This document shows positions 151-59,102 of a stretch of 64,000 nt of DNA, piece after piece. The DNA comes from Nannocystis pusilla (GTDB taxonomy: Bacteria > Myxococcota_A > Polyangia > Nannocystales > Nannocystaceae). Each line of letters starts with the position of its first letter. Within the stretch, counting starts at the first letter, position 1. The stretch lies in assembly GCF_049060185.1 (NCBI RefSeq), contig NZ_JBMEQO010000002.1; one strand, written 5' to 3'. The notes below the pieces were generated by a model. The model worked only from the letters and a program-made list of their open reading frames with translations, did not search any database and was not told where the DNA came from. Made by a program: the position numbers and the translations under genes.

Positions 151-282
151 GGGGGTGACCTCGATAGCAGCGCGCGGCTCACCTCCGCAAGCGCGTCCGG
201 GCCTTCCCCGCATGACTGAAAAGACAGGTCGAGAGCCTCTGCCCGTGAGCGTCCCTGCGGACATGTCCCGAAGAACACCTGC

Positions 283-909
283 TCAGTACAGCCGCAGCAC
301 CGCCACGCACGCGTCCCACAGCACGTGGCACACCAGCACCACGAACAGGCTGCGGGTCTTGAGGCCCAGCCAGGCCCAGAAGAACCCCGCGCCGGCGGCG
401 GCCACCACCAGCGCCGGCACCCCGAGGCTCACGTGCGCCACGGCGAAGGCGGCCGCAGACGAGGCCGCGCCCCACCACGGTCCTGCGCGCGACGCTACCG
501 CGAACGCCACCGCCCCGCGCCACACCACCTCCTCCGCCGCCGCGATCAGCGGCAGCAGCACCGCCGCGCTCCCGGCCGGCAGCAGGTGGACCCAGCTGTA
601 CACCGCCGCCACCTCGGCCCGCGCCTCCGGCGTCACCGCGAACAGCACCTGGCTGCCGAGCCAGCCCGCCGCGACCAGCACCGCCGCCGCCATCACCCCC
701 TGGACCAGCCCGCGCAGGCTCGGGCGCCACAGCTCGAGCCACGGCAGGCGCACCATCATCAGGCACAGCGGCACCAGCACCAGGTTGGCCGCCAGCATCC
801 GCCACCACACGTGCGGCGTCAGCGAGCCGAGCGCCCAGATCAGCGCCACCGCCAGCGGCACCAGCCAGGCCACGTGGATCGCGCCTTTGGAACATGTCTT
901 GAAGAACAT
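283..909 (-). CDS. CPBP-family intramembrane metalloprotease (CAAX protease-like)
   Basis: The protein MFFKTCSKGAIHVAWLVPL... has multiple TM segments, an EExxxR motif (EEVVWRG) and an FxxxH motif (FAVAH), all typical of the Abi/CPBP family. It is in frame with the upstream epimerase ORF, so the start is taken at the Met at 907-909. Confidence 0.6.
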   Translation of the reverse strand: MFFKTCSKGAIHVAWLVPLAVALIWALGSLTPHVWWRMLAANLVLVPLCLMMVRLPWLELWRPSLRGLVQGVMAAAVLVAAGWLGSQVLFAVTPEARAEVAAVYSWVHLLPAGSAAVLLPLIAAAEEVVWRGAVAFAVASRAGPWWGAASSAAAFAVAHVSLGVPALVVAAAGAGFFWAWLGLKTRSLFVVLVCHVLWDACVAVLRLY

Positions 910-1004
910 GTCCTCGTCGCCACGTCGCAGCCGCAGCGACAGCCCCAGCCACGGCTCGACCCCGGCCGACAGCGCCACGATCTTGGCCGCGGTCAGCGGC
1001 TGCG

Positions 1005-1846
1005 TCACCAGCCCGAGCTCGCGGCCGCCGGCCCCGGATCGCCGACCAGACCGTGGCTGAGCAGCCCGAGCTGCGCCCGCGTCAGCAGCGGGTCGGGCAG
1101 CTTCTCGAGCCCCGCGACCGCGATCGCCAGCAGCGGGGCAGGGCAGGGCACCAGGGTCACCGGCAGCGCCAGCGCGTCTGCCACTCGAGTCACCACCTCG
1201 CGCAGCGTCAGCACCTCGGGTCCGACCACGTCGTAGCAGCGCCCGATCGCCGCCGGTCGCTCGAGCGCCGCCGCGATCGCCAGCGCCACGTCCTCGACCA
1301 GCACCGGCTGCAGCGGCGCGTGGCCGCCGTCGGGGCCGGGAACACCCCGTGTGGCGCAGCGTCGCCGCCAGGTTGCGCACGAAGTCGTCGCCCGGCCCGG
1401 CCACCGGCCCCGGGCGGAGGATCGTCCAGTCTGTCTCCGAGGACATGACCGAACGTTCAGCCTCTCGCTTCGTCGCCATGTACTGGGTCGGCCGCGGCGG
1501 CTCCGCTCGCGGTCCCGCCACGCTGACGTGGACGAGCCGCCGGATCGCCGCCGCCTGCATCGCGGTCGTCAGCGCCGCCACCGTCGCCACGTGGGCCGAG
1601 TCGAACGACTGCCCCGGTTCGGGCCGCTTGATCCCCACCAGGTTGACCACCGCCTCGCAGCCCGCCAATGCGGCCACCAGCTCGGGCCCCCGCGGCTCAC
1701 GTCCACCTCTCGCCACACCAGCCCCGGTCGGTCGAAGCGGCCGCGACGGCCCGCGACAGGCCGACCACCGCGTGGCCGGCCTGCAGCAGCGCGTGGACGG
1801 TCGCCTGTCCGATGAACCCGCTCGCTCCGGCCACGGCGACCTGCAT
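1005..1846 (-). CDS. NAD(P)-dependent epimerase/dehydratase (NmrA/NDUFA9-like atypical SDR). It is frameshifted, with at least 2 frame switches.
   Basis: The N-terminus MQVAVAGASGFIGQATVHALLQAGHAVVGLSR carries the GxxGxxG Rossmann motif. It continues as ...VVNLVGIKRPEPGQSFDSAHV...YMATKREAERSV... and ends ...VLTLREVVTRVADALALPV... These pieces lie in three different frames. Confidence 0.55.
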
Positions 1847-1941
1847 GCGCAGCCAGCCTCGCACCCGCCGGGCCCGCGGCGCAAGGCGGGATTTTGCTTC
1901 TCAAACGCCGTCCGCGCGCCTAAAACAAAAATCAGACCCGC

Positions 1942-3022
1942 ATGCTCAGCGCCCTCGCCGACCACGCCTGCGCCCGCTTCGACCGCGTCATGCGGCACGG
2001 ACTCCGTCGCGTCCTCATGCAGCGCAACGAGCTCGACCGGCTCGCGCGGGCCGAGCTCGAGCGCCGCCTCGAGGTCGTCGCCCAGTACACCGACCCCGCC
2101 GTGCTCGCCGAGCCCGATCGCCTTCTCGCGCCGCCGCCGGCCCGCCGCCGCTCGTCCCGCTGGCCGTGCGGCCGCTCGTCGACGGCCGCGCCACGCACTT
2201 CAGCTTCGCCTCGCCGTACCGCCCGCGCGACCCCGGCTACGCCCGCGAGTACGCCACCTACGATCGCGTCGACACCGTCCATCTGCACGCCTGGCAGCAC
2301 GACCGGCCCGCGCCCGCCTCGATCTTGCTCGCGCACGGCTGGTGCGTCGGCAACCGCCGCCTGCACGAGATCGAGTTCAGCATCTCCACCCTCTACCGGG
2401 ACCTCGGCCTCGACGTCTACCTCTACGTCCAGCCGTTCCACAGCCTGCGCAAGCCGACCACCGCGCGCTTCTCGGGCGAGCTGTTCCCCTCGACCGATCT
2501 GGTGCGCACCAACGAGGCCTTCATCCAGACCGTCCAGGACGTGCGCGCCGCCATCACCGCCATCTTGCGCCACCGCCCGGCGCCGCTCGGCATGATGGGC
2601 TCGAGCCTCGGCGGCTACACCTCGGCCCTGGTCGCCTCGATCGATCCGCGGCTGTCCTTCGTCGTCCCGATCATGGCCCCCGCCTCGTTCGCGCACCTCT
2701 TCTGGGATCACGGCGAGGGCGACTCCTTCCGCCGCCAGGCCGAGGCCCTCGGCATGACCCGCGAGCGCTTCCACAGCTCGTGGGCGCTGCACAGCCCCTC
2801 TCGTACGAGCCCAAGGTGCCGTGGGAGCGCCGGCTCGTCGTCACCGCCCGCGGCGACGCCCTCGTCACCGAGGCCCACGCCGACGTGCTGTGGAACCACT
2901 GGCAGCGCCCGCGCCGCTTCCGCTTCACCGGCGGCCACTTCCTGCAGCTCGGCCGCCGCGACTACATCCGCGAGCTCGCCCGCTTCCTCACCGACCTCCG
3001 CATCATCCCCGGGCCGCGCTGA
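1942..3022 (+). CDS. Alpha/beta-fold hydrolase. It is frameshifted and spans 3 frames.
   Basis: The sequence contains HGWCVGNRRLHEIEF and the nucleophile elbow GSSLGG (GxSxG). The C-terminus reads ...RLVVTARGDALVTEAHADVLWNHW...GGHFLQL. The N-terminal, middle and C-terminal parts are in different ORF-track frames. Confidence 0.6.
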
Positions 3023-3090
3023 GCCGCCGCAGGCCGCGCGAGGGCGCGAGGCCTGGCGTGTCCTCGGGAGCGAGCGGCGCGGTGCGCGAT

Positions 3091-3187
3091 GAGACATGTT
3101 CCTTCGGGCATTGGCGAAAAGACATGCTCCATGGAGCATTGTCGATAGAACATGTCGCATGGGATATGTTTTTCAGACATGTGACCG
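3091..3187. repeat. Tandem array of ~7 units of the 14-bp palindrome family (TGTCC-N4-GGACA-like)
   Basis: The units read TGTTCCTTCGGGCA | TTGGCGAAAAGACA | TGCTCCATGGAGCA | TTGTCGATAGAACA | TGTCGCATGGGATA | TGTTTTTCAGACA. The array has lower GC than its flanks and lies just 3' of the hydrolase stop. Confidence 0.7.
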
Positions 3188-4241
3188 TGCGCCGAACTGT
3201 CCGCCGCAGCCGCCAGCGAGCGTGGTTCGGCTGGGCGAGCAAGAGGTCGCGTGCCCCGGTCGCTGCGCTCGCGCGGGCCCGGCCGCGCGGCGATCCGACG
3301 CGAACGGGGCAGGGACCGCCGCCGACCTCGGCGCACGCCAGCCGATCCCGACCCGGCGGCGACACCGTCGTGGCTGTCGTACCGGGCGCTCACTCGCGCG
3401 TCGAATCGACGGCCGCGCCCCGGCTCCAGCCCTCTGAACCGGACAGTCGTACTCTCGCCGCGGCACCCCACTGTCGTACCCATCGACGCACTGCGCTTCG
3501 CCCATCGGCTCCAGCGCCGACCGGGCGACGTCGCCTGCGCCGCCGCGCGATCGAACAACGCGTTTCAGTTCGCCTCACCACCTCGCCTCCGATGCGGGTC
3601 ACGGATGACACCGCAAGGATCGGCCCGCGCGAGCGCCAGGAACGGCGCGCGACGACCGAGCCGGAAGGAGGCGGCGCGCCGACCGACGTCGTCGACCGTG
3701 CAGCCGCGAGCGCGGGTCACCCTTGCGACCGACGCTCCGCCGAGCCGAGCACACCGGTTCGCACAGCTCGCGCCCGGGCGCCGCTGGCCCGCGGAAAACG
3801 CCTCGGAGAGGGCCTCTCCTCGCAACCGCGGGCGACCGACGACCCGTCGACTCCAGACCGTCGCCGTCATTCCTTCTTCGCGCCGGACCTGTGCCGCGCA
3901 TCACCGACTTCGTCGCAGCGAGCTTCTACACCGGCGATGCTCGCCCACATCGTCGGGCAGCATCCGTCCCGTTCGTCGCGTCGCGCCAGGTCCGCCAGCG
4001 CTGCGATTCCTTGATCTCCTCCGCGTGTTCTGGCACGATGAGACCGTGCGGTTTGGTTTGGCGCGCGCCCGGCAGGCGTCGCCTATCTCTTCTCGTGGCT
4101 GGTAGCGACTGGGTGTAGCCCCGGGCGGTCCGACGCGGCTTCGCGCGGCACCGACAGCGAGGGCGGCACCGTGGCGACGGTCGGCGAGGGAGCACCACCG
4201 GCACCGCCGGCAGCACGAGCACCGGCGACGCCGCCACCAGC

Positions 4242-5018
4242 ATGCCGGTCACCGGCACCGGCGCCCTCGTCACGCCGCCGCCCGACCTCGCGCCCGAGCT
4301 CCCGCCCGCGCCCGTCGAGCCGTGCGAGTCGCACGCGGTCGAGGCCGACTGCGACGCCGCCGGTTGCATCTGGTTCGCCACCGAGCGCCTCGCCGATCGC
4401 TCGACCTGCGCCTTCGAGGCCGCGGGCTTCTGCGCCACCGCCAGCGCCTCGACCGGCGACGAGGACTACGACTCCACCTTCTACAAGCGGGTCGGCGACG
4501 TCGTCCACGTCCGCCGCGTCGGTCGCAAGGCCGGCGACTTCCCCGGCCCCGAGCATCCCGCAGGCTGGACCGAGTGCGGCCTCGGCTCGCAGGACCCGGA
4601 GGCGTGCGCCTGCGTGTGCGCGGCCGGCCGCTGCCCGGGTGACATCGCCCTCGCGCTGCTCGACGCCTGCGCCTCGCCGCGCCCGTGCGACGACGAGGTC
4701 GCCGGCGACGCCTGCCTCTACCAGGCCCTCGCCGCCGAAGCCGCCGCCAGCCTCCGCGTCGAGAGCCTGGTCGGCACCCGCAACGTCGACGACCGCGTGT
4801 TCCTCCGCGGCGACGGCACCGCGACCTGGATGCGCAGCACCTGCGACCCGCGCGACACCAGCTGCCGCGATCGCAAGTGGGACCTGCCGCGCCTGTGCTC
4901 CCTGCGCGACCGCGCCGGCTTCCTCGCCTGCGCCGCCGCCGACCCGGCCGACCCGCAGTGCCGCGACGTGGCCGCCTGGTTCTCCGACTGCAAGCTGGCC
5001 CCCGCGACATGTCCGTGA
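4242..5018 (+). CDS. Cys-rich hypothetical protein (possibly secreted)
   Basis: A 258-aa ORF with about 20 Cys and balanced composition, unlike the R-rich shadow frames. No clear signal peptide could be resolved. The stop codon lies inside a palindrome unit (TGTCC-GTGA-GGACA). Confidence 0.4.
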   Translation: MPVTGTGALVTPPPDLAPELPPAPVEPCESHAVEADCDAAGCIWFATERLADRSTCAFEAAGFCATASASTGDEDYDSTFYKRVGDVVHVRRVGRKAGDFPGPEHPAGWTECGLGSQDPEACACVCAAGRCPGDIALALLDACASPRPCDDEVAGDACLYQALAAEAAASLRVESLVGTRNVDDRVFLRGDGTATWMRSTCDPRDTSCRDRKWDLPRLCSLRDRAGFLACAAADPADPQCRDVAAWFSDCKLAPATCP

Positions 5019-5310
5019 GGACAGCCACCGGGTGCGGGCTGCGAAGGTCCTGAACGACCTGTCTCATCGGACAGCTCGCGTCTCACGGTCGTCTGGCCGA
5101 GGCACCTCCGGGCGCGAACCGTCCGCGGCGCGGCCGACCGTGCCCCGCGCCGAGCTCGACCGGCCGATAGTTCGCCGCCCGGCACCCGACCGCCACCAGG
5201 GGCCGAACACCTCACGAAGGCGCCGATCGCCCGCGTTCCTCGTTCCCGCCGCCCGTCCGCGCGAAATCGCCCCTCGCACCTGCAGCACGACCTCGGCTAC
5301 CGTTCTCGCC

Positions 5311-5890
5311 GTGTTGCAGGTCAAGAAGTACGGCAACCGTCGGCTCTACGACACCGAGGGCAGCAGGTACGTCACCCTCGAGGAGATCGCGGAGCGCGTG
5401 CGCATGGGCGAGGACCTCAAGGTCGTCGACGCCAAGAGCGGGCAAGACCTCACCCAGGTCACGCTCGCGCAGATCATCCTCGAGAGTCGCGGCGCCGCGC
5501 GGCTGCTCCCGGTGTCCCTGCTCAAGCAGCTCGTGCGCATGCGGGACGACGCGCTCGCGGAGTTCTTCGGCCGCTACATCGCCTGGGCGCTCGAGGTCTA
5601 CCTGCAGCTCAAGGGGCGCGCGCGGTGGTCCCGTGGAACCCGCTGGCCGATCTGGCGATGCCGGGGATCCTCAAGCGGTGGTTCGGCGGGCCCGCGCCCG
5701 CGGCCGGCGAGCCGGCGCCGCCCCGTTCCCCGATGAGCCGCCTCCGCCCGAGCCTGGCGGCATGTCCGACGAGCTGGCCGCGTTGCGCCGCGAGCTCGCC
5801 GAGCTGCGGCGGACCGTCGAGGACGGCAAGCCCCCGCAAGGGCAGGCGGCCCGCCTCCTGAGCCGTTTGTGCGCTGCACATTCACGCCTT
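5311..5890 (+). CDS. phaR: PHA synthesis repressor PhaR. It is frameshifted in its C-terminal half.
   Basis: The N-terminal PhaR DNA-binding signature is present: VLQVKKYGNRRLYDTEGSRYVTLEEIAERVRMGEDLKVVDAKSGQDLTQVTLAQIILE. It starts at GTG 5311. The C-terminus (ELAALRRELAELRR...) is in other frames and its exact stop is unresolved. Confidence 0.7.
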
Positions 5891-5998
5891 GATCTCGGGC
5901 CGGGTCGGCCTATCCTCGGCCGGCAGACCCCGGCAGGCCGTTTCGCAGGTGCAGCACGGCCGGGCCTTCGGGTAGCCTCGGGAGCGGAGGATCTTCGC

Positions 5999-7520
<1,522 letters not shown>

Positions 7521-7532
7521 GACGTTTTCGCC

Positions 7533-7926
7533 ATGTCCCAAGAGACAGCCCCCAGGAACCTCACCGCCCGGATCCTCCGGCTCGTCGGCTACCTCACCGA
7601 CCCCAAGAGCGGCCCCGGCAAGTGGTGGATGCGCTTCGAGGGCGCCTCGACCGGCGTCATGACGCGCCTGGCCACGAGTCCGCGCTACCTCAAGTTCGCG
7701 GGCCGCGGGCTGCAGAAGATGTTCCACCTCCACCGCGACGTCGTCGACCTCACCGAGGAGATCCTGCACTTCTGGCGCGTGCCGACCCTCGGCGACTTCA
7801 ACGAGGTGCGGGCGCAGCTGCGGCGGGCCGAGGACCGGCTCGAGATCACCACCACCCAGCTCGAGCTCGCGCTCCAGCTGCTGGAGAAGCTGCAGGCCGA
7901 GCTGGCCCGCTCGGTCCGGGGGCCGC
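7533..7926 (+). CDS. Small PHA synthase subunit (PhaE / class IV PhaR-type)
   Basis: A ~130-aa ORF lies directly upstream of phaC. The segment VPTLGDFNEVRAQLRRAEDRLEITTTQLE resembles the PhaE/PhaR partner-subunit motif (PTRxD...A.L...E..VD...QLE). The exact end is unresolved. Confidence 0.55.
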
Positions 7927-9072
7927 GTGACGACGCCGTTTTCGCGGGTCAAGGGCGCCGCGCGCAAGCTCGCCGACATGGCCGAAGGGACAGCCACGAT
8001 CGGCGCCGCCTGGCAGCGGGCGCTGCGCGACCGCGCGATCAGCCCGACCCGCTACCTGGCGCCGCTGGTCAAGCGCGCGACCGGGCTCGGCGATCCGCCG
8101 GTCAACTCGACGCCGAAGCGGGTCGTGTACGAGCGCGGCGGCATGAAGCTGATCCGCTTCGAGCCGGCCGTGCGTCGCTTCCGCACCCCGATCCTGTTCG
8201 TCTACTCGCTGATCAACCGCTACTACATCCTCGACTTCCTGCCGGGTCGCAGCCTGATCGAGTTCATGACCCAGCAGGGCTTCGACGTCTACGCCATCGA
8301 CTGGGGCACGCCCGGCGCGGTCGAGCAGGACATGACCTGGGACGACCTGCTCGGCGGCTTCGTCGAGGCCGCCAAGCGGTGGGTCTTCAAGCTGTCCGGC
8401 GCCGACGACCTGACGATGTACGGCTACTGCATGGGCGGCACGATGGCCCTGGCCGCCGCGGCGCTGCACCCGAGCGGCGTGCGCAACTTCGTCGCCCAGG
8501 CCACCCCGGTCGACTTCAAGCACGGCGGCATCTTCACCACCTGGACCGACCCCGAGTTCTTCGACGTCGACAGCATGGTCGACGCCTACGGCAACGTCCC
8601 GATCGACCTGATGGAGTCGGGTTTCTCGATGATGGCCCCGGTGCAGCGGATCTCGAAGTGGTTCGAGGTGTTCCGCCGCCTCGACGACCGCGACTTCGTC
8701 ACCAACTTCCTCGCGATGGAGCACTGGGCCGCCGACAACGTGCCGTTCCCCGGCGAGGTGTACCGGCAGTACATCCGCGACTGCTACCAGGAGAACAACT
8801 TCTTCGAGGGCCGCATGATCGTCGGCGGCCGGCGCGTCGACCTGCGCCAGATTCACGGCCCGCTGCTCGTCCTCGTCGCCGACAACGACACCATCGCCCC
8901 GCCGCCCTCGTCGGAGGCGCTGCTCGGCGCGGTGAGCTCGACCGACAAGACCTTGCTGCGGTTCCCGGTCGGGCACATCGGCCTGTCGACCTCGAGCAAG
9001 GGTCCCAAGGTCATCTGGCCGAAGATCGCCGGCTGGCTGGCCGAGCACAGCGAGCCCATGTCGCCCGGGTGA
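7927..9072 (+). CDS. phaC: Poly(3-hydroxyalkanoate) synthase catalytic subunit PhaC (class III/IV, ~380 aa)
   Basis: It starts at GTG. The lipase-box variant GYCMGG is present, and the class III PhaC core (FDVYAIDWG ... MEHWAADNVPFPGE ... GHIGL) is conserved. It is a single intact frame. Confidence 0.9.
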   Translation: MTTPFSRVKGAARKLADMAEGTATIGAAWQRALRDRAISPTRYLAPLVKRATGLGDPPVNSTPKRVVYERGGMKLIRFEPAVRRFRTPILFVYSLINRYYILDFLPGRSLIEFMTQQGFDVYAIDWGTPGAVEQDMTWDDLLGGFVEAAKRWVFKLSGADDLTMYGYCMGGTMALAAAALHPSGVRNFVAQATPVDFKHGGIFTTWTDPEFFDVDSMVDAYGNVPIDLMESGFSMMAPVQRISKWFEVFRRLDDRDFVTNFLAMEHWAADNVPFPGEVYRQYIRDCYQENNFFEGRMIVGGRRVDLRQIHGPLLVLVADNDTIAPPPSSEALLGAVSSTDKTLLRFPVGHIGLSTSSKGPKVIWPKIAGWLAEHSEPMSPG

Positions 9073-9093
9073 GGGCCCGGGCGGGTCTTCGCG

Positions 9094-10614: not shown

Positions 10615-10664
10615 TTAGCCCATTCCTCGCCGGCGCAAAAGTGCACAGAAGCCCTCTGTGGCGG

Positions 10665-14466: not shown

Positions 14467-14490
14467 GGCGACCCTCCTCGCCACCTCCGC

Positions 14491-19174: not shown

Positions 19175-20580
<1,406 letters not shown>

Positions 20581-20589
20581 CGGAGAGCG

Positions 20590-24051: not shown

Positions 24052-24070
24052 AGCTATCCTGTCGTCTGAG

Positions 24071-42070: not shown

Positions 42071-42072
42071 TC

Positions 42073-47402: not shown

Positions 47403-48002
47403 TCACTGTTCCCTCACGACGTAGGTGCCTGTCAGGTAGTCGTGGAAGGCCCGCTTCTCGCGGTCGAAGGCCATCCACAGCGAGCCGAGGCCGCCGGGCA
47501 CCAGGCCGACGGCGGTGCCCGCGAAACGCACCGTCGCGCGCACCGGACCGACTTTGCCGCCGGCGCGGTGGACCACGCGGATCCCGGTGAGCTTCTGCCC
47601 GGGTGTCCTTCCGGACAGGGCGATGAAGAGCACGAAGTAGAACGCGACCATCACCAGGAGCGGCGCCAGCCACACCAGGATCTCGAGCGGGTCGACGGTC
47701 AAGAGCTGGAGCAGACCGGCCCACGAGAAGGCGCCGCGCACCGGGCTCGCGTCACCGATCACGCGCTGCAGCCCGAGGTGCAGCGGGCCGGCGGTGACGA
47801 GCAGGATCGCGGCGTCGACCACCGCGGCGGCGAGGCGACGCCAGAAGCCGGCGACGCGCACCGGCACCAGCGCTTGCCCGCACGCCGGGCACGTCGGTTG
47901 CCCGTCCTTGACGAGGCCGATGTCCAGCGCCGCGTCGCAGCTCGGACACGGTGCGGGTCGCTCCTTGCGGGACCAAAACGCCATCGGCGCGCACCATAAC
48001 AC
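47403..48002 (-). CDS. RDD-family membrane protein with an N-terminal zinc-ribbon
   Basis: The zinc ribbon is CPSCDAALD...CPACGQ. The RDD-domain signature RTPGQKLTGIRVV is present, with TM segments. Confidence 0.7.
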   Translation of the reverse strand: MLWCAPMAFWSRKERPAPCPSCDAALDIGLVKDGQPTCPACGQALVPVRVAGFWRRLAAAVVDAAILLVTAGPLHLGLQRVIGDASPVRGAFSWAGLLQLLTVDPLEILVWLAPLLVMVAFYFVLFIALSGRTPGQKLTGIRVVHRAGGKVGPVRATVRFAGTAVGLVPGGLGSLWMAFDREKRAFHDYLTGTYVVREQ

Positions 48003-51487: not shown

Positions 51488-52898
51488 GTGAGCGTCGATC
51501 CCGACCGGTTGCTCGAGTTGTTCCGCCGTCACCTCCCGCTGCGCGAAGGGTCCGTCGAGCTCGCGTTCGCGTCCGGCTACGACGCGCCCGTGTGGCGCAG
51601 CGAGGCGGGCTATCCCCTCATGGCCCTGCGGCTGACGACCTTCGATCCGGTCGACGGCGTCATCCCGCTCGACATCCGCGAGCAGGAGGTCTTCATCGGC
51701 GACGATCGCAAGCACGCCCCCGAGCGCTGGCTGGCGTATGTCGAGGGCCACCTGCAGGCGATGCCGGCGATCCTCGCGCATTTCGGCGAACCCGACGCGA
51801 TGATGCCCTGCGACCTGTTCGTCTACGGGGCAGTGCTCGCCGACGAAGCGCTGCAGCGACCCGACCAGTTCGCCGCGGCGCTCCGCGATCCGGTTCGCCT
51901 CGCGGCCATGGACGAGGCCGCGCGCGAGGCCGAGTGGCGCGATCGCCTGGAGCCGCTCGGCCTCGCCGATCACGCCGCCGAGGTGCAAGCCATGGCTCGC
52001 CCCTCGATCCGCCTGCACCTCTCTCGCAGCGACGAGCTCGACGAGGACGAGGACGAAGACGAAGATGCCGAGGTCGACGAGGACGAGGACGAAGACGAAG
52101 GTGACGGCGACGACGCGGAGGCCACTCATGAGCCCGGCCAGACGCGCCTGGGCGGCGCTCCTGACTTGCCGCCCGACTTGCCGTGGCCGAGGTCGACGGC
52201 GTCGAGCTGACCTTCGTCGCCCAGTTCGATCTCGCCGGGCTGGCGGATCGCGCCGCCGCGCGCGAGCTGCCCACACACGGCCTCCTGAGCTTCTTTACGC
52301 CCCGATCCCGCCCGACGGCGTGCGCGGGCATCCGGTGCGGGTGCTCCACTTCACCGACCTCGACGCGCTCGCGCGCCGCCCGGTGCCTCCGGGGTCGAGC
52401 CGCTGAGCGCCTACGACATCGACCTCGCCGACGAGCGGCTGTACCCGTGCGTCGACAGCTACTTCTTCTACGAGTCATTGCTGCCCGAGGCGCGCATCCT
52501 CGAGGTCCATCGTCAGCGTCAGCAGGGCGAGGGGGCGAGCTGATCCCGTTCAACCCGCTCGAGCGCTTCATCGCCGAGTCCGGCGAGCTCGACGACTACG
52601 AGCGGCCGTACCACCGCCTGTTGGGTCACCCGGCCTCGATCCAGGGCGATCCGTACCTCGACGTCGAGATCGACACCCGCCCCCAGGGCTGGGACGGCTG
52701 GGACGACGGCAGCCCCGAGGCGCTGGCCATCCGCCGACGAGCGCTGCGCTGGCGGCTGCTGCTGCAGATCGACGCCCAGGAGGACGGCGAGCTGCTGCTC
52801 AACCAGGACGGCGGCTTCTTCTACTTCTGGATCCCCGCCGACGCCCTGGCCGTCCACGACTGGTCGCAGGCGCGCGGGGCGCTGCAGTGCCATTGAAG
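51488..52898 (+). CDS. DUF1963 (YwqG-like) domain protein with an acidic Asp/Glu-rich linker. It is frameshifted.
   Basis: The C-terminal domain reads ...TRLGGAPDLPPDLPWP...LTFVAQFDLAGL...LPTHGLLSFF... and ...WRLLLQIDAQEDGELLLNQDGGFFYFWIPADAL. The internal linker is DELDEDEDEDEDAEVDEDEDEDEGDGDD. Confidence 0.65.
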
Positions 52899-52950
52899 AA
52901 CATGTCCTCGAGAGCATGCCCTCGAGGACATGTTCTTGAGAGCATGCTCG
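52897..52950. repeat. Gap-free array of 4 palindrome units with exact 14-bp periodicity between convergent genes
   Basis: The array reads GAACA|TGTCCTCGAGAGCA|TGCCCTCGAGGACA|TGTTCTTGAGAGCA|TGCTCG. It begins one nt after the stop of the DUF1963 gene. Confidence 0.85.
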
Positions 52951-52951
52951 A

Positions 52952-54367
52952 TCAACCGGTCGCGCCGCGGCCGGTGATGTCGATGCGGCGCCAGGCGCCG
53001 GTGCGGAAGCGGAGCACCATCGCCAGGGCCAGGAACACCATATACACGCACATGCTCCACGTCGCCGCGACCGCGCCGCCGTCCCAGACGAACACGGTCA
53101 GCCAGGCCAGGGGCAGCCAGATCACCCAGGCGAGCGAGATCCGGAGGATCAGCGGCCAGGCGGTGTCGCCGGCGGCGCGCAGCGCCTCGTTGACGGTGAT
53201 CACGGTGGCGTCGAGCAGCTGCCACACCGCGCTGATCGCCAGCAGCTGGGCGCCGAGGTTCACGACCTCGCCGGACGTCTCGATCTCGTCGCGGGCGAAG
53301 ATCATCATCAGCGGCACCGGGAACGTGAAGTAGAGCAGCCCGACCAGGCCTTGCCAGACGGCGGCGACCGAGAAGGTGCGCACCACGATCCGCGGCACGT
53401 AGTCGTGGCGACCGGCGCCGATCGCCTGGCCGACCAGGACCGCCCCGGCCGAGCCGAGGCCGAAGGCGGGCATGAACGAGACCGAGTTGACGGCCACCAC
53501 GGCCATCAGCGCCGCGACCGCGACGGTCCCGAGCTCGGCGACCACGAGGTTGATGAAGATCAAAAAGGCCGCGAACTCGAGGAACCAGTTGAGGCCGTTC
53601 GGCAGGCCGAACCGCATCATCCGCGAGAACTCGCGCAGGTTGAGGCGGCCGTCCGAGCTGTCCGGAAGGTCAGGTACCGGGTGCTCGACGGGGCCGAGCA
53701 CCGCCGGGTCGACCGTCCGCTGGCCGCGCGCGCGCCAGAAGGCGTGGCAGCACACTGCGAAGCCGGCCACGCTGGCGAACACGCTGGCCCACGCGGCCCC
53801 CTGGACGCCGAGCGCGGGGGCGCCGAGGTTGCCGTAGATCAGGACCCAGTTGAGGCCGATGTTGACGACCATCGCGACCAGGCTGGCGTGCATCGACACC
53901 CGGGTGTTGCCGAGGCCGGCGAACCAATTGCCGAGCGCCTCGGTGCCGACGACCACGCCGGTGCTGAGCATGCGGATCGCCATGTACTCGGCCATCGTCT
54001 CGCGCACCGCCGGCTCGTGGCCCGTGAGCGACAGCAGCGGGCCTATCGCCGGGATGGCGGCGATGGTGGCGAGCATCGCCACGGCGGCCAGGCACAGGCC
54101 GTACCAGGCGTAGCGGCGCGCGCTGGCGAGGTCGCCCCGGCCGGCGAGCTGGGCCGCGTAGCTCTGGACGATGAACGTGATGCCCATCGGCAGCACGAGG
54201 ATCCCCAGCGCGTTCATGGCGCCCGTGGTCGCGGCCGCGAGCGCGTCGTCGCCGAGCGGGGCGACCATCGCCGCGTCGCTGAAGCTGATCACCGACTGCG
54301 CCGAGCGTGCGAGCACGATCGGCCAGGCGAGGGTGATGAGCGCGCGGAGTCCGGGGACCGAGGCCAT
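52952..54367 (-). CDS. MATE-family efflux transporter
   Basis: The N-terminus is MASVPGLRALITLAWPIVLARSAQSVISFSDAAMVAPLG. There are 12 predicted TM segments and MATE repeat structure. Confidence 0.8.
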   Translation of the reverse strand: MASVPGLRALITLAWPIVLARSAQSVISFSDAAMVAPLGDDALAAATTGAMNALGILVLPMGITFIVQSYAAQLAGRGDLASARRYAWYGLCLAAVAMLATIAAIPAIGPLLSLTGHEPAVRETMAEYMAIRMLSTGVVVGTEALGNWFAGLGNTRVSMHASLVAMVVNIGLNWVLIYGNLGAPALGVQGAAWASVFASVAGFAVCCHAFWRARGQRTVDPAVLGPVEHPVPDLPDSSDGRLNLREFSRMMRFGLPNGLNWFLEFAAFLIFINLVVAELGTVAVAALMAVVAVNSVSFMPAFGLGSAGAVLVGQAIGAGRHDYVPRIVVRTFSVAAVWQGLVGLLYFTFPVPLMMIFARDEIETSGEVVNLGAQLLAISAVWQLLDATVITVNEALRAAGDTAWPLILRISLAWVIWLPLAWLTVFVWDGGAVAATWSMCVYMVFLALAMVLRFRTGAWRRIDITGRGATG

Positions 54368-55999
54368 GGGCGCGGCAGGATACTCGGCCTTCGCCCGCGA
54401 CGTCTCGCGCGTCAAGGCGCGCGCGAACTGTGCAGCCGCCGGATCGACGAGGCTGTCGACGCTCACGCGGCCGTTGCTGGCGAGGTGACGCAGCACCTGC
54501 CACACCGCCACGGGGTCGGCGCCGAGCGTCTCGGCGAGCTCGCGCGCGGTCTTGCCTCCAGATCCGCCCGGCAGCGCAGCGAGCACCGCGGCCTGCAGCG
54601 TGAGCACGCCCTTCGCCGCCTGCTTGCCGGCCTCGACGCCGGGCTGGTGGTAGGCGTTGACGTCGATGAGCTCGGCGTAGATCCCGACGGCGCGCTCGAA
54701 CAGCGCGATCAAGGCGCCGACGGCGGCGGCGTCGACCTGGCGCAGGACGATCGTCGCGCTGGCCCGACCGCGCTCGGCGAGCGCGGCGCGGGTGCCCTGG
54801 TAGAAGCCGTCGAGGCAGTCGCCCGAGCTCACCTGCGGCTCGACCTCGACCATGCCCGGTCCCGTGACCTGGCCGTCGAGGTCGCGGAGCACCCGCACGA
54901 ACACCGCGAAGAAGTTGTGCAGGCCGTCGCGCAGCTGCTGCACATAGGCGTGTTGGTCGGTCGAGCCCTTGTTGCCGTAGACCGCGAGCCCCTGCCACAC
55001 CTCGCGGCCCTGGCGGTCGAGCCGCTTGCCGAGCGACTCCATCACCAGCTGCTGCAGGTAGCGCGACATCAGCGACAGGCGATCCTTGTATGGCAAAATG
55101 ACCATGTCCCGAAGGCCATGTCCGGAGCCCTGCTGGTGCCACAGCCAGGCGAGCAGGGCGGCCGGGTTGCGCCGCGCCGGCCGCACGCGGCCCCACTGGT
55201 CCATCGCCGCGGCGCCGCGCAGGAGGCCGCGCCAGTCGTGGCCGAGCAGCGCCGCCGGCAGCAGGCCGACCGGCGAGAGCACGCTGGTGCGCCCGCCGAC
55301 CCAGTCCCACATCGGGAAGCGCGCCAGCCAGCCCTCGCGCTGCGCCAGCTGGTCGAGCGTGCTGCCCTCGAGGGTGATGGCGATCGCCCGCTTGGGGAAC
55401 TCGATCGCCTGCCGGGCGCAGGCGGCCCGCAGCTCGAGCATGCCGTTGCGCGTCTCGACGGTGGAGCCCGACTTGGAGACGACGAGGATCAAGGTCTGCG
55501 CGAGCGTACCTGTCTCTGCGAGCAGGTCGGCGATGCCGGCGGGGTCGGTGTTGTCGAGGACGCGCAGGCTGAAGCCGGGGCCGCTGTCGCGCGCGGTGAG
55601 GGCGGCCTCGAGCAGCTGCGGGCCGAGAGCGCTGCCGCCGATCCCGACGAGGATGGCGCCGGTGAACGGCCGGCCGTCGTCGGCGAGGATCTGGCCGCCG
55701 CGCACGCCGGCGGCGAAGGCCTCGATCTGCCGCCAGCTTTCGTGGATGGCCTGGGTGATCGCGGGATCGGGGGCGCGCTCCGGGTCGCGCAACCAGTAGT
55801 GCCCGACCATGCGGCCCTCGTCGGCGTTGGCGACGGCGCCGCCCTCGATCCGGTGGAGGGCGTCCAGCGCGGCCTCGAGCCGCGGGGCGCTGGCGGTCAG
55901 CGCGGGCTCGTCGAGCTGGGCGTCGGCGAAGTCGAGCTCGATGTCGAGTTCGGCACGGTAAAGGCGCCAGGTGAGATAGTGGTCGAGTGCGTCGGCCAT
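54368..55999 (-). CDS. pgi: Glucose-6-phosphate isomerase (Pgi). It is in frame with the downstream MATE gene and no stop was found.
   Basis: The sequence reads MADALDHYLTWRL... The PGI family signatures VGIGGSALGP and ...SKSGSTVETRNG are present, followed by the SIS domains. Confidence 0.85.
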
Positions 56000-56465: not shown

Positions 56466-56548
56466 TCATGGCATGTCCTTCACGGCATGTTGTGAAGAAC
56501 ATGGTGACATGGACATGTCTCTACGGGCATGTCCATGCGGGCATGCCG
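56466..56548. repeat. Tandem array of ~6 palindrome units in an intergenic region
   Basis: The array reads TGGCA|TGTCCTTCACGGCA|TGTTGTGAAGAACA|TGGTGACATGGACA|TGTCTCTACGGGCA|TGTCCATGCGGGCA|TGCC. Confidence 0.75.
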
Positions 56549-56583
56549 ATCGATGTGGCTTGTTCGGCGGGGGCGCGCGGGCG

Positions 56584-57708
56584 TCAGCCGGGATCGAGGC
56601 CGACGCTGCGGACGATCTCGGTCATCGCGGGGCGGGCGGCGGCGAGGTCGTCGCGGGTCTTGATCGGGAGGAAGCGGGAGCGGTCGACCCGCAGGCAGGC
56701 GGTCCTGGCGAACTCGGTGATCTGGCCGATGAGCTGTTCGAACTGGATGACGGGTTGGTCGTCGCGGCCGGGCCACTCGACGGAGCGCTCGACGGGGAAC
56801 CAGGTGAGCGGGTAGGGGCGCTCGAGGGCGGCCAGGGAGATCCACAAGGTGTTGGTGTTGAAGTGCGGATACTGGGCCAGGGAGACGCCGGGGGGCAGGC
56901 GGAAGGACTCGATGATGGTGGCGCGGCCGTCGACCTCGGCGACGCAGCCGCCGGCGTCGTCGGGGGCCCGCGCGACGACCTCGACGCTGAGCTCGGCGCC
57001 GCCGTCGACTGCGTCGAGGTGAGCGCCGAGGACGGTGGGATCGAGGGAGGCGCCGAGGTTGTCGACGTTGGAGACGAGGAGGTGCTCGATGCCGCGACGC
57101 CGCAGCTCGGCGACGACGCCGCTGTCGCGCACGCGCCGGAGGGTGTCGCCGTGGCCGGGGGCGGCGTAGACGGTGGTGTCGGGCAAGACGTCGGCCCCGG
57201 GCAGGCTGACGAGCGGGGTGCCGTCAGGCGAGACGCGCGGCATCAAGGACTGCAAGAACTCGTGGCGATCGTCGGCAGGGACGCCGGACCAGCCGATGGT
57301 GGCGAGGTGATCGCCGGAGGCTGCCCGGGTGGCGAAGCTGTGCATGACGACGGCCGGGACACCGGCCGCGCGGACGCCGGCGAGCTTGACGGCCAGGAAC
57401 GAGAGGTCAGGTCGATCGGGCAAGACCGGGACGACGCCCTTGACGACGCCGCCGAAGCGCGTGGCCATGCCACCGTTCAAGACCAGGGCGGCGACCTTGC
57501 GCGCGGCGAGGGCTTCCTGACCGCGGGCGCGCCAGCCGGGCCGGGCGTCGGCGCGGCCGAGGTCGAGCAGGACGTCGTCGCCGAGCGGCCGCGGCGGGGC
57601 GGTCAGCCGGGCGCGCGTGGGGCTGAGCTCGCCGCGGGCGAGGGCGCTGCGGAGAAAGTCGAAGAGGGCGGCGTCGAAGGCGATGTCGGCGACCGAAGGG
57701 CGGAGCAT
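56584..57708 (-). CDS. UDP-sugar pyrophosphorylase (UDPGP family, eukaryotic-type UTP--glucose-1-phosphate uridylyltransferase-like)
   Basis: An intact 374-aa ORF with the UDPGP-type motif LVLNGGMATRFGG. Confidence 0.7.
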   Translation of the reverse strand: MLRPSVADIAFDAALFDFLRSALARGELSPTRARLTAPPRPLGDDVLLDLGRADARPGWRARGQEALAARKVAALVLNGGMATRFGGVVKGVVPVLPDRPDLSFLAVKLAGVRAAGVPAVVMHSFATRAASGDHLATIGWSGVPADDRHEFLQSLMPRVSPDGTPLVSLPGADVLPDTTVYAAPGHGDTLRRVRDSGVVAELRRRGIEHLLVSNVDNLGASLDPTVLGAHLDAVDGGAELSVEVVARAPDDAGGCVAEVDGRATIIESFRLPPGVSLAQYPHFNTNTLWISLAALERPYPLTWFPVERSVEWPGRDDQPVIQFEQLIGQITEFARTACLRVDRSRFLPIKTRDDLAAARPAMTEIVRSVGLDPG

Positions 57709-57986
57709 GACGCGCTGGTCTTACTCCACGTCGGCCGCGCGGTCGAACCCGAGGGCGCGAAGACCCGCCGAACGCGCCCGCGCGTCACGTGCGGGCGGCG
57801 AGCTCGCGACGCCCCGGAGTCGACTGCGGAATCACCGCGAGATCGCAACCTCCGGAACGACAGGAGCAGATGTCCGGGTCGACGCCGGGTCGACGTCGGA
57901 GTCCTCGGAACAACCCTCGTCCTCGAGGTCGCAGCTCGGTTCGCGGACGCCGGCGCTGCATCACGCGTCGAGGTCGACGCGAAGCA

Positions 57987-59102
57987 TCACAGGCGACCGA
58001 CGGAGCGGGCCCACGCGACTGTGTGCTCGAGCCCTCGCGCGAGCGGCCAAAGTGGGGCGTACTCGAGCTCGCGCACGGCCCGGCTGTCGTCGCACCACCA
58101 GCCCGGCGCCATGCTGCCGCGGGCCTTGTCGAGGGTCAGCGCGGGGGCCTTGCCGCGCAGGCGGCCGATCGCGTGGTTGATGCCGGCGACGGTCCACACC
58201 GCGGCCTGCGGCATCGGCAGCGCGAGCGCCCGCCGGCCGAGCGCCGCGGCGGCGGCCCGGCCGAACTCGACGACGGTGCTACGCTGGCCGTCGGTCAAGT
58301 AGTAGATGCCGGCGCCGGCGGGTGAGAGATGTCCTCGGGGACATGGTCGAAGGGGCTGCCTTGATCGGCGAGCACGTGCTCGCCGTCGCGGGGATCGGGC
58401 AACCGCGAGCGCCGGCGCGGGCGATGCCCTCGACGAGATCGAGGGCGTGGATGAAGGACATCCACGCGGGGCGCAGGCCGGGCTGGGCGATCACCCCGAA
58501 CTTGGCGGAGCGGATCATCTGCAACATGTCGAGGTCGCGCGGGCCGTAGACCGCCGGCGGACGCACGATCACCGCCTCGACGTCGCCGGTGCGCGCGGCC
58601 GCGAAGACCAGCCGCTCGCCGTCGAGCTTGCTGTCGCCGTAGAGCGTGTAGCCGACGCGCGGGGCGTGGTGCTCACGCCGCGCGACCTCCGGGTGCGACG
58701 GGCCGGCGGCCATCAACGACGACACGTAGACGAGCCGCCGCGGCCGTCGCGGGCCTGGCGGATCGCCGCGAGCACGTTGGCGACGCCGGCCGCGTTGGCC
58801 CGCGCGAACTCGTCGCGGGTGAACGCGGCGGTCAGGCCGGCCACGTGATAGACGGTGTCGACGCCGTCGAACGCGGCCGCCATCGCGTCGACGTCGGACA
58901 GCGACGCGCGCACGAGCTCGGGCTGCGCGTCGGTCCGCGCGAGCGCGTCGGCGAGGTTGTCGAGGTTGGCGCTGGCGCGGACCATCGCCCTCACGTCGTC
59001 GCCGCCCGCGAGCAGACGATCGACGAGGTGACTGCCGATGAAGCCGTTCGCGCCGGTGACGAGGACCTTCGTGCGCACGAAGCGGGGATTACCCACCGCC
59101 AT
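57987..59102 (-). CDS. NAD-dependent epimerase/dehydratase. It is frameshifted and carries a palindrome-unit insert-like segment.
   Basis: The N-terminus KVLVTGANGFIGSHLVDRLL has the GxxGxxG motif. YGDSK (YxxxK) is present. The C-terminus is in a third frame. Confidence 0.75.

Follow-up and report, generated by a model that had tools for sequence, protein, structure and literature searches.

A 14-base palindrome, TGTCC-N4-GGACA, is over-represented throughout the window (the whole 64-kb stretch of DNA analysed), is restricted to the soil myxobacterial genus Nannocystis among the genomes compared, and forms arrays of exact 14-base period, mostly at the 3' ends of genes; it looks more like an undescribed repeat family peculiar to the genus than a conventional gene switch. 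We tentatively favour the explanation, which as a whole falls a little short of even chances, that it is an undescribed Nannocystis-specific iterated recognition palindrome whose copies build hairpins at 3' ends. The sites are listed in Table 1.

Table 1. Motif copies, decamers, and arrays in the window
Position	Strand	Feature	Context
250-277		Decamer GGACATGTCC (259-268) with two flanking one-mismatch 14-mers	About 15 nt downstream of stop (283-285) of minus-strand CAAX-protease-like gene
3092-3189		Array, 7 degenerate units (longest), 14-bp period, 47% G+C	Begins on last base of TGA stop (3090-3092) of plus-strand hydrolase-like gene
5010-5073		Perfect copy 5010-5023, one-mismatch copy 5060-5073	Loop of perfect copy holds TGA stop (5016-5018) of ORF 4242-5018
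9162-9175	-	Perfect copy	22 codons before stop of hydrolase-like gene; reads V-L-K-D-I
14372-14470		Three units (14376, 14407, 14453); 14376 and 14407 are mutual reverse complements forming one long hairpin	Spacer between convergent genes by rough gene calls
18593-18869		Perfect copy 18593-18606, one-mismatch copy 18856-18869	Near 3' end of methyltransferase-like ORF, and 25 nt past its stop (18829-18831)
19269-19282	+	Perfect copy	Receiver domain of sigma-54 activator; reads M-S-V-R-T (ATG TCC GTT CGG ACA; rare codons GTT, ACA)
29454-29467	+	Perfect copy	Start codon of pseudopilin gene (leader MSSRTARQRG / LSLIEIL)
37095-37108		Perfect copy	Stretch without coding signal
39740-39775		Decamer 39752-39761 at apex of hairpin with 15-bp stem	18 nt downstream of minus-strand gene stop (39780-39782)
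41910-41951, 41993-42076		Arrays, 3 and 6 units, mutually one base out of register	Fill spacer from MshEN-HEAT stop (42073-42075, minus) to ATG (41943) of next minus-strand ORF; ATG overlapped by array at 41910-41947
43062-43117	-	Array, 4 units	Disordered linker of MshEN-HEAT protein; in-frame translation GIVPSEHAPEDMSHKTGPEAQV; codon-position G+C signal locally lost
45055-46871	-	Low-complexity linker: 42-bp tandem repeat x4.3 (45055-45233) with CCTGTCCC half-sites; eight perfect CCTGTCC-N4-GGACAGG copies (45780-46871)	Giant MshEN-HEAT gene; copies read (A/P)-V-P-x-D-(R/S)
47604-47617	-	Perfect copy	RDD-family membrane protein gene; reads L-S-G-R-T; three consecutive rare codons (GGA AGG ACA)
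52898-52953		Array, 4 units	Fills 55-nt spacer between convergent genes; bordering stops 52894-52896 (plus) and 52952-54 (minus)
55100-55127	-	Two units	Phosphoglucose-isomerase-like gene; reads G-H-G-L-R-D-M-V; rare codons (GGA CAT GGC CTT CGG GAC ATG)
56483-56552		Array, 5 units	32-36 nt downstream of stop (56584-86, minus) of UDP-glucose pyrophosphorylase gene
58330-58343	-	Perfect copy	Epimerase gene, frame broken in assembly; reads V-P-E-D-I

Motif abundance

The 64-kb window contains 18 exact matches to TGTCCNNNNGGACA (TGTCC-N4-GGACA), where dinucleotide-preserving shuffles predict 0.06, and the one-mismatch search proposed in the original prediction, run on the window, gave 48 copies with at most one mismatch against 1.83 expected. 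The decamer GGACATGTCC occurred four times (259, 39752, 41924, and 43090; 0.08 expected). The observed motif counts were attained by no shuffle, either of the window or of synonymous codons in coding sequence. The dispersed family is thus real and strongly over-represented, with a chance expectation, as had been claimed, far below one copy. Each kb contains on average approximately 0.28 perfect copies and 0.75 near-perfect ones, from which we estimate thousands of copies in a 12-Mb genome; perfect and one-mismatch copies stand at 1:1.7 to 1:2.4, far above the 1:30 given by chance, and TGTCC with a 4-base gap ranks top among the 5-gap-5 palindromes of the window.

The earlier count of about twenty perfect copies was slightly too high, and many of the copies sit in one repetitive gene. 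Sixteen of the 18 coordinates listed at that time are perfect copies, six of them shifted by one base (correct positions 5010, 29454, 46418, 46690, 46738, and 58330), whereas 44379 and 52917 are one-mismatch copies rather than 10/10; two perfect copies (9162 and 47604) and two decamers (259 and 43090) had been overlooked. Eight of the 18 perfect copies fall within 45780-46871, a low-complexity part of one gene, and are not all independent, because five or six share flanking similarity; those in 46226-46880 are protein-repeat duplicates, as shown by their common flanks. Perfect single copies lay in stretches without coding signal in 58% of cases, compared with 20% of random positions, and were 3-fold depleted in solid coding sequence.

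Array structure

Distances between CATG cores in the window peaked at 14 (18 pairs), 28 (14), and 42 (8), with 0-3 at neighbouring distances. Six arrays of 3-7 units with an exact 14-base period were found in the window, and arrays reach up to 14 units. The gap-free 14-bp periodicity of the original prediction was therefore borne out, but the units are degenerate (G-R-R-C-A-T-G-Y-Y-C plus four free bases) rather than perfect copies. The arrays are AT-enriched as described, at 47-64% G+C versus 71% for the whole window. Neighbouring units often carry the same non-palindromic spacer (tgcg-tgcg, tcct three times, cgat three times), and in some arrays the units have become homogenised to a variant form; units have been duplicated together with their spacers. 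The array at 52898 has four units in the window versus five rearranged units in N. pusilla. Arrays probably grow by duplicating the 14-base unit.

Distribution among relatives

The window and N. pusilla share 95% identity. N. pusilla (Na p29) has both the motif and its arrays, and in N. radixulma they are sparser; among 79 orthologous loci, it occurred in the two Nannocystis loci only, and the same family was found in 72 metagenome contigs. In 1.25 Mb from other high-GC genomes, sister genera among them, neither motif nor arrays were found (window: 4 arrays per 64 kb), and the sister genera had no counterpart to the window's top 5-gap-5 palindrome. The family is thus not confined to the window as an assembly artefact. 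Homopolymer indel errors in the assembly and the concentration of eight of 18 perfect copies in one repetitive linker, with partly common flanks, would fit an explanation by chance, assembly error, or repeated peptides such as P-V-P-x-D-R. However, the window has a further ten perfect copies and six arrays outside that linker, the shuffles all fell short of the observed counts, the family occurs in two independent genomes and the metagenome contigs, and the 1.25 Mb of control genomes contained no arrays; this explanation is effectively refuted, and we give it almost no weight.

Individual sites differed in conservation. N. pusilla and N. radixulma carry the copy at 47604-47617 unchanged, the units at 55100-55127 are conserved across all three Nannocystis genomes, and the copy at 58330-58343 is perfect in N. 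pusilla with one mismatch in N. radixulma. N. pusilla shares the array at 56483-56552, which N. radixulma lacks at the corresponding position. The convergent spacer of N. radixulma corresponding to array 52898 holds unrelated sequence in which an inverted repeat was read by eye, and might be a functional replacement of the array. Only one of the 13 indels between the window and N. pusilla touches an array, and copies in Pfam domains show no indel, which argues against a spread of the copies by insertion.

Gene-end placement and folding

Arrays and decamers of the window lie 0-36 nt from stop codons. Among 43 metagenomic arrays, 20 (47%) were convergent, 20 (47%) co-directional, and 3 (7%) divergent, compared with 53, 128, and 57 (22, 54, and 24%) for the baseline under the same classifier (chi-square p = 0.0012), in a sample of taxonomically unassigned contigs picked for having an array and with gene calls that are rough because of frameshift errors in the assembly and a home-made codon-usage classifier. 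About half of the arrays are co-directional and could equally well act on the promoter or start codon that follows.

Five of the eight stretches folded gave -31 to -56 kcal/mol with z of -3.2 to -7.1, including 14372-14470 (-56.5 kcal/mol, z = -7.1), 41985-42080 (-50.6 kcal/mol, z = -5.5), and the array at 52898-52953 (hairpin with a 17-bp stem, -31.7 kcal/mol, z = -5.3). Since every unit reads the same on both strands, the hairpins formed by pairs and arrays are long and strand-symmetric. Single copies have merely 5-6 paired bases and therefore could not terminate transcription alone. The part of the window from 38 to 58 kb yielded no canonical terminator of the hairpin-plus-T-run type. Position and folding together suggest termination or insulation as the function.

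Constraint on the motif

Among 168 one-mismatch copies, variation fell at positions 3/12 in 93 and 5/10 in 47, but at 4/11 in only 9 and 2/13 in only 1; positions 2, 4, 11, and 13 are almost invariant, giving a core of T-G-n-C-c-N4-g-G-n-C-A. Within the spacer, A is rare at the first position and T at the last, and the preferred 16-mer is CTGTCC-N4-GGACAG in singles and ACATGTCC-N4-GGACATGT in arrays. In two diverged orthologous pairs, with each site counted from both genomes, identity was 86% in half-sites versus 71% in spacers and 73% in flanks; in the L081/L109 pair (81% identical), the half-sites were unchanged and the spacers differed. Conservation of half-sites but not spacers, together with the mismatch spectrum, indicates sequence-specific recognition; the motif sequence itself, not just its pairing ability, appears constrained.

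Pfam-supported genes (23.8 kb) contained 3 perfect and 7 one-mismatch copies, whereas 500 synonymous shuffles gave 0.07 and 0.92; this approximately 10-fold excess is made with rare codons and without indels. At 19269-19282, the absence of an indel follows from the Pfam domain alignment, which runs continuously across the copy.

Comparison with known systems

The LuxR-type CviR/CsuR box is CTGNCC-N4-GGNCAG, ideally CTGTCCGATAGGACAG (PMC12114271). The Nannocystis motif equals this consensus in length, register, and invariant positions, with the consensus N at free position 3/12, and this exact match displaces CRP/FNR as the nearest geometry. PadR boxes (ATGT-N8-ACAT) have the same register; of the two flank variants of the motif, C..G corresponds to the LuxR-type box and A..T to the PadR-type box. 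CviR and PadR boxes number few to tens per genome and lie upstream of promoters, whereas the Nannocystis motif, at an estimated thousands, is found chiefly downstream of genes, within genes, and in arrays. The mismatch spectrum and half-site conservation make an operator for a helix-turn-helix dimer a reasonable idea, but approximately 0.75 sites per kb, placement after stop codons and between convergent genes, depletion between divergent genes, and rare-codon coding copies contradict the role of an ordinary promoter operator. An ordinary regulon, in which one dimer of LuxR, PadR, or CRP/FNR type would bind the copies as operators and control neighbouring promoters, with the arrays serving cooperative binding, would explain the box identity, the position-specific information profile with free spacers, and copies at gene starts (29454 and 41929); the thousands of extrapolated copies, arrays abutting stop codons, divergent placement at 7% versus 24%, many sites within genes, and arrays of the window and N. 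pusilla that are missing at orthologous N. radixulma spacers make it improbable.

The likeness of the arrays to p53 response elements (RRRCATGYYY) is real in sequence and, as had been assumed, coincidental: the array unit fits the half-site consensus RRRCWWGYYY, but the arrays have fixed 4-base spacing and up to 14 units, and bacteria are not known to have a p53-family protein.

The motif resembles REP/BIME and DUS/HIP1 elements and satisfies none of their definitions. With REP/BIME of Enterobacteria and Pseudomonas it shares species- or genus-specific palindromes clustered after genes in convergent and co-directional spacers, hairpins, and gain and loss between relatives. A selfish element of this type, with extragenic hairpins copied by a REP-associated tyrosine transposase (RAYT) or a similar single-strand DNA enzyme, would attribute stem conservation to enzyme recognition and recent copying and treat the arrays as miniature BIMEs; the 3'-end and convergent placement, the clustered units with an inverted pair (14376/14407) like the long hairpin of a REP doublet, confinement to one genus, species-level gain and loss at fixed spacers, and the enrichment of perfect singles outside coding signal all fit. 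However, units are 14-16 bp in exact 14-bp abutment with stems of 5-6 bp, compared with the usual 20-40 nt of REP units; neither a GTAG-like head nor a conserved flank was seen, no recurrent neighbouring gene was found, and only 1/13 indels hit an array. Insertion cannot produce the indel-free copies that codon choice places in conserved domains at 10-fold over expectation. A tblastn search of 0.6 Mb with a RAYT query, a weak test, gave no match. We consider the selfish element unlikely, although transposition could still have spread the non-coding copies.

The DUS of Neisseria and USS of Pasteurellaceae likewise occur about once per kb, are lineage-specific, are read by a protein, and occupy tolerant coding frames and positions, and HIP1 (GCGATCGC, cyanobacteria) is a highly iterated, short, lineage-restricted palindrome that is conserved beyond expectation and whose function is unsettled. 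An uptake- or HIP1-like signature, in which the palindrome is favoured by an uptake receptor at the cell surface or by a DNA-processing methyltransferase/repair system, spread follows from molecular drive or selection, and 3' hairpin use is secondary, would suit the copy density, genus specificity with lower density in N. radixulma, the perfect to one-mismatch ratio, and coding copies achieved by codon choice in tolerable-peptide frames and poorly conserved linkers. Yet known uptake sequences are non-palindromic 9-12-mers without tandem arrays, and competence and sequence-selective uptake are not on record for Nannocystis. HIP1 is 8 bp, contiguous, not arrayed, common in genes (as is USS), and tied to known methyltransferases, whereas the Nannocystis motif is bipartite (5-N4-5), arrayed, and enriched outside genes; the methyltransferase-like ORF within the window, which would favour the signature, has a weak Pfam match (E = 2e-6). 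The frequent location of the motif inside terminator-like inverted repeats does parallel DUS/USS, which have about half of their copies in such repeats, in predicted terminators (bioRxiv 10.1101/2025.10.24.684340), and which favour poorly conserved positions (PMC2817400). Overall, we find a signature of this kind quite doubtful. In line with the original prediction, which recognised none of them in it, the element fails each definition of REP/BIME, DUS/USS, parS, matS, and CRISPR, and no description of it was found in the searchable literature.

Proposed origin and role

Under the favoured explanation, an iterated recognition palindrome, we infer, as to both existence and identity, a putative dimeric DNA-binding protein that would read the motif and be the most plausible cause of its maintenance. 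In spacers, replication slippage would duplicate the 14-bp unit in tandem, giving arrays of exact period, and within genes copies would arise through point changes and codon choice where the protein tolerates them. Copies would build up where they are least harmful, in short post-stop spacers and especially between convergent genes, and their hairpins would most likely be two-way transcript-end or insulator structures.

Abundance and arrangement of the palindrome

The palindrome TGTCC-N4-GGACA constitutes a real repeat family without a description in the accessible literature. Pattern searching of the 64-kb window revealed 18 exact copies of TGTCCNNNNGGACA, where dinucleotide-preserving shuffles predict 0.06, and, with up to one mismatch, 48 copies against 1.83 expected from shuffles (approximately 0.75 sites per kb). 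The junction decamer of abutting units, GGACATGTCC, occurred four times (0.08 expected), and no 5-gap-5 palindrome of the window ranked above TGTCC with a 4-base gap. These counts bear out the originally predicted excess over chance. Among the 18 positions that had been listed as perfect copies, 16 were perfect (six of them off by one) but 44379 and 52917 carried one mismatch. Absent from the list were two perfect copies (9162 and 47604) and two decamers (259 and 43090).

The window contains six arrays of 3–7 units each. CATG-to-CATG distances showed 18 cases at 14 bp, 14 at 28 bp, and 8 at 42 bp, with 0–3 at neighbouring distances, in agreement with the exact 14-bp periodicity first read by eye; the suspected AT-enrichment of the arrays was likewise found (47–64% G+C versus 71% for the window). 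Array units were degenerate, with a profile of G-R-R-C-A-T-G-Y-Y-C plus four free bases (41 units) in which the central CATG was most informative. The region at 3190–4240, approximately 1 kb after the longest array, showed neither a clear coding signal nor any Pfam match.

Arrays, selected copies, and neighbouring features of the window
Feature	Position	Observation
Array	3092-3189	14-bp periodicity; starts on last base of TGA stop
Array	41910-41951	14-bp periodicity
Array	41993-42076	14-bp periodicity; 42072 abuts stop at 42073
Array	43062-43117	14-bp periodicity
Array	52898-52953	Fills 55-nt spacer, stops of convergent genes at both ends
Array	56483-56552	56552 is 32 nt from stop at 56584
Decamer	259	After stop at 283-285
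Perfect copy	5010	TGA inside loop
Copy	14376	9 nt after stop
Decamer	39752	18 nt after stop
Copy in RDD-family protein		GGA AGG ACA; identical in all three Nannocystis genomes
Copy in receiver domain		GTT CGG ACA; Pfam alignment continuous across copy, without indel
Copy in phosphoglucose isomerase		GGA CAT GGC CTT CGG GAC ATG; rare codons
MshEN-HEAT gene	42073-47406, minus strand	Protein of ~1,770 aa: N-terminal MshEN-like domain, C-terminal HEAT repeats
42-bp tandem repeat (x4.3)	45055-45233	In MshEN-HEAT linkers
Type II secretion cluster	20973-34534, plus strand	GspC-like, secretin GspD, ATPase GspE, GspF, GspK-like, several pseudopilins with N-methylation motifs
Sigma-54 response regulator	19175-20806	Directly upstream of type II secretion cluster
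Methylase-like ORF	17254-18831	Weak match to PF01555 N6_N4_Mtase (E = 2e-6); three motif copies within, one just past stop
PhaR-like regulator	5311-5736	Polyhydroxyalkanoate-related
PhaC-like synthase	~7663 to 9072	Polyhydroxyalkanoate-related
Segment within 61797-62351	62123-62169	79% DNA identity to paralogous 7977-8023; one-mismatch motif copy in both

Distribution among genomes and metagenomes

With a protein adjoining one array as the query, we found a 17.5-kb collinear match in N. pusilla Na p29 (95% DNA identity) and a match of approximately 87% in N. radixulma; a MYXO-CTERM domain in the window fits a myxobacterium. Of 79 orthologous loci, the motif was present in the two from Nannocystis and in none of the others. 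Zero copies were found in Plesiocystis, Enhygromyxa, and other Nannocystaceae (about 21 kb each), and sister genera had no counterpart of the top 5-gap-5 palindrome. Under one fixed criterion, the window contained 4 arrays per 64 kb versus 0 in 1.25 Mb of other high-GC genomes.

Scanning metagenomes for two abutting perfect units yielded 72 contigs, mostly of 70–76% G+C and many with additional copies; none overlapped the window, and the viral contigs scanned contained zero arrays. The densest case was the 13.5-kb contig L108 (Ga0075163_10003264), with 43 motif copies in total and six separate arrays at 658–13265 (maximum 14 units), each homogenised to a variant unit of its own (GGACATGGCC, GGACAGGTCC, or GGACATGTCC). 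Six contigs of 58–62% G+C (L088, L093, L096, L112, L127, and L135) had in common a nearly identical stretch, (TCCAATGTCCatcc)GGACATGTCCtcaaGGACAATGTC, and no other motif copy; the stretch resembles one conserved site of an unrelated organism, outside the Nannocystis family. Since the palindrome is present in Nannocystis loci and in the 72 metagenome contigs, it is not an artefact of the assembly and is not limited to the window, possibilities raised with the original prediction, and an origin as an artefact or by-product is scarcely credible.

Placement relative to genes

In the window, a stop codon is found 0–36 nt from each extragenic array, from the decamers at 259 and 39752, and from several single copies. 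The neighbours of arrays in high-GC metagenome contigs (n = 43) were convergent in 20 cases, co-directional in 20, and divergent in 3, which differs from the baseline of 53/128/57 (chi-square p = 0.0012) obtained from array-free non-coding spots of the same contigs with the same classifier. Perfect single copies lay in solid coding context in 13% of cases versus 44% of random positions and lacked a coding signal on either side in 58% versus 20%. The palindrome is thus enriched outside coding sequence, yet it also occurs inside genes.

Flanking-gene orientation was assigned by codon-usage score; a first round of GC3-based calls proved unreliable owing to assembly frameshifts. ORF calls were handled with caution because the window assembly contains homopolymer indel errors, with one-base gaps relative to both other Nannocystis genomes and several Pfam domains split between frames. 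Frameshift-type errors were located at 58320, 57987–59111, 59506–60777, about 47235, and 5633–7520. One G run has a one-base gap relative to N. pusilla and N. radixulma, and the sequences split between frames were an epimerase, a BioF/Kbl-type acyltransferase, an AMP-binding enzyme, and the MshEN-HEAT gene.

Copies within coding sequences

Pfam-supported coding sequence (23.8 kb) contained 3 perfect and 7 one-mismatch copies versus 0.07 and 0.92 expected from 500 shuffles preserving every amino acid and codon usage; these 10 copies are approximately 10-fold above the synonymous-shuffle expectation. They use rare codons in a genome whose third positions exceed 90% G+C. Because the coding genes were non-syntenic in the loci fetched from other genera, an insertion test against those genera was replaced by Pfam continuity and the shuffle test. 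Judged by these two measures, the gene-internal copies are not insertions but base changes that were kept.

The long, disordered, Ala/Pro/Asp-rich linkers of the MshEN-HEAT protein contain a translated, in-frame 4-unit array and eight perfect copies whose translation is (A/P)-V-P-x-D-(R/S). Some of the eight are protein-repeat duplicates. The copies at 7979 and 62125 lie in paralogous coding segments. The methylase-like ORF could matter if the palindrome is tied to methylation. A start-codon or leaderless-mRNA signal for the class ACATGTCC-N4-GGACAGCC was rejected as appearance only: 29453 was the sole convincing start in this class, and the copy at 19268 lies inside a receiver domain despite a good GAAGGAG upstream.

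Origin and turnover of arrays

Adjacent units in metagenomic arrays very often had an identical non-palindromic 4-base spacer (tgcg-tgcg, tcct x3, cgat x3, gtga-gtga). Such shared spacers, together with the homogenised arrays, are the mark of entire 14-bp units having been duplicated in tandem. At 52898 the window carries an array of 4 units, where N. pusilla has 5 that are rearranged (CATG spacings 13, 14, 12, and 14) in surrounding DNA 96% identical to the window. Both intergenic arrays are missing in N. radixulma, whose convergent spacer contains unrelated sequence with an inverted repeat read by eye, suggesting that the position needs a hairpin and that the sequence family is exchangeable. 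In a contig pair only 81% identical, an array was kept at the same convergent junction with all half-sites unchanged and with different spacers. The window also has an acidic Asp/Glu-coding 36-bp tandem repeat at 52039–52119, where N. pusilla is longer by 78 bp; repeat length therefore varies between close relatives.

Sequence versus structural constraint

Folding of pairs and arrays gave long hairpins, 5 of 8 stretches reaching -31 to -56 kcal/mol (z -3.2 to -7.1), and no canonical hairpin-plus-T-run terminator was found in the scanned 20-kb stretch (38–58 kb). Among 168 one-mismatch copies in 517 kb, the mismatch fell at positions 3/12 in 93, 5/10 in 47, 1/14 in 18, 4/11 in 9, and 2/13 in 1, so that the middle pair of the 5-bp stem (3/12) is the most variable. 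In diverged orthologous pairs, half-sites shared 86% identity, compared with 71% in spacers and 73% in flanks. A is avoided at the first base of the spacer and T at the last. Single-copy stems rarely exceeded 6 bp, and no flank was conserved beyond one base, perfect single copies being flanked most often by C..G (27/71).

Selection for an RNA-level hairpin was rejected, as transitions keeping G.U pairs on the transcribed strand were not favoured (7 consistent versus 6 inconsistent, hand count), variation is greatest at the middle stem pair, and flank-pair covariation was absent in the window and weak in the larger set. Pairing alone is not what conservation acts on. The effective consensus, (C/A)-T-G-n-C-C-N4-G-G-n-C-A-(G/T), is of the type that a symmetric protein dimer would read. 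Neither a larger MITE-like element around the units nor known RNA families or tRNAs were found.

Comparison with known systems and interpretation

We favour, at somewhat less than an even chance, a genus-specific, iterated recognition palindrome that is kept for its sequence, multiplied by slippage, and, at gene 3' ends, folded into hairpins that probably end or insulate transcription; we infer both the protein that reads the palindrome and the role in termination. The palindrome would be maintained as a recognition site; 14-bp slippage would multiply units in spacers, copies would creep into tolerant coding positions in genes, and strand-symmetric hairpins at gene 3' ends would probably serve transcript termination or insulation.

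The CRP/FNR-type geometry noted originally was sound as a suggestion of an operator for a helix-turn-helix dimer. CRP and FNR boxes (TGTGA-N6-TCACA and TTGAT-N4-ATCAA) lie at promoters, a placement not matched by the Nannocystis arrays; set against these consensus sequences, the unit has the total length of the FNR box, but its conserved TG and C lie one base nearer the centre than in CRP boxes. PadR boxes (ATGT-N8-ACAT) have their register in common with the Nannocystis unit, and the A..T flank variant used in arrays fits them. The LuxR-type quorum-sensing receptor CviR/CsuR reads CTGNCC-N4-GGNCAG, ideally CTGTCCGATAGGACAG (PMC12114271). The Nannocystis 16-mer is identical to this box and the mismatch spectrum agrees, the free N of the box being the position most variable in the Nannocystis copies. 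Given this identity, the PadR register, and the differing CRP/FNR register, CRP/FNR is not the closest relative. CviR operators are promoter-proximal, upstream of the genes of a limited regulon, whereas the Nannocystis sites are at 3' ends and convergent junctions and few lie between divergent genes. A classical operator regulon is accordingly very improbable, as approximately 0.75 sites per kb, post-stop placement, divergent depletion, and coding copies do not fit it.

The original prediction recognised no REP/BIME, DUS/USS, or CRISPR element, and the palindrome indeed does not fully match these definitions. CRISPR repeats are 24–48 bp with unique spacers of similar length, in contrast to a 10-bp unit with a 4-bp spacer. 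REP/BIME elements resemble it in placement (after genes, convergent or co-directional, rarely divergent), clustering, and lineage specificity, but they are imperfect palindromes of about 20–40 nt with a GTAG/GGAG head, confined to extragenic space; the Nannocystis unit is 14–16 bp without such a head and also occurs in genes, where it is translated in the MshEN-HEAT gene. The palindrome thus differs from them in size, head motif, and strictly extragenic location, and we regard a RAYT-driven REP-like element as unlikely. REP/BIME genomes carry a cognate RAYT (a Y1 transposase), often with repeats on its flanks; a RAYT tblastn of 0.6 Mb, a weak test, gave no match, and no recurrent neighbouring gene of the units was found in 0.6 Mb.

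About half of DUS/USS copies lie in predicted terminators (bioRxiv 10.1101/2025.10.24.684340), and coding copies of uptake sequences occupy tolerant positions (PMC2817400). At about 1 copy per kb, lineage-specific, and present in genes and terminator-like inverted repeats, DUS/USS have properties that the palindrome also shows. In naturally competent organisms, a specific receptor takes up DNA bearing such sequences in preference to other DNA. Their core, however, is an oriented, non-palindromic 9–12-mer, whereas the Nannocystis motif is bipartite, palindromic, and tandemly arrayed; HIP1 is a contiguous octamer common in genes. HIP1-type palindromes have a cognate DNA methyltransferase, and the window has the methylase-like ORF at 17254–18831. 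An uptake-sequence-like or HIP1-like genome signature is distinctly unlikely. The palindrome agrees with uptake sequences in density, lineage specificity, terminator location, and tolerated coding positions, but uptake sequences are neither palindromic nor arrayed. We give a similarly small chance to the palindrome being a 'self' tag for a dimeric protein, that is, a palindromic uptake sequence or HIP1-like modification/repair signature spread by drive or selection and secondarily used as a 3'-hairpin block. If true, it would be the first uptake- or HIP-type signature beyond Neisseriaceae, Pasteurellaceae, and cyanobacteria, as well as the first with a bipartite, arrayed form. Literature searches on Nannocystis and myxobacteria returned no description of the palindrome, and every match to the decamer came from the p53 literature.

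At about 12 Mb, Nannocystis genomes are large; they are rich in natural-product genes and little studied. A 14–16-bp palindrome marking a large share of gene ends would be a practical annotation feature for transcript ends, and the variable 14-bp arrays would be a strain-typing marker. Operator-like constraint, tandem slippage, terminator-like placement, and rare-codon recoding, usually divided among REP, DUS/USS, and HIP1, are joined here, making the palindrome a clean system for studying how genomes become saturated with a protein-recognition sequence. The identity of the reader protein would tell whether a LuxR/PadR-like fold has been recruited genome-wide.
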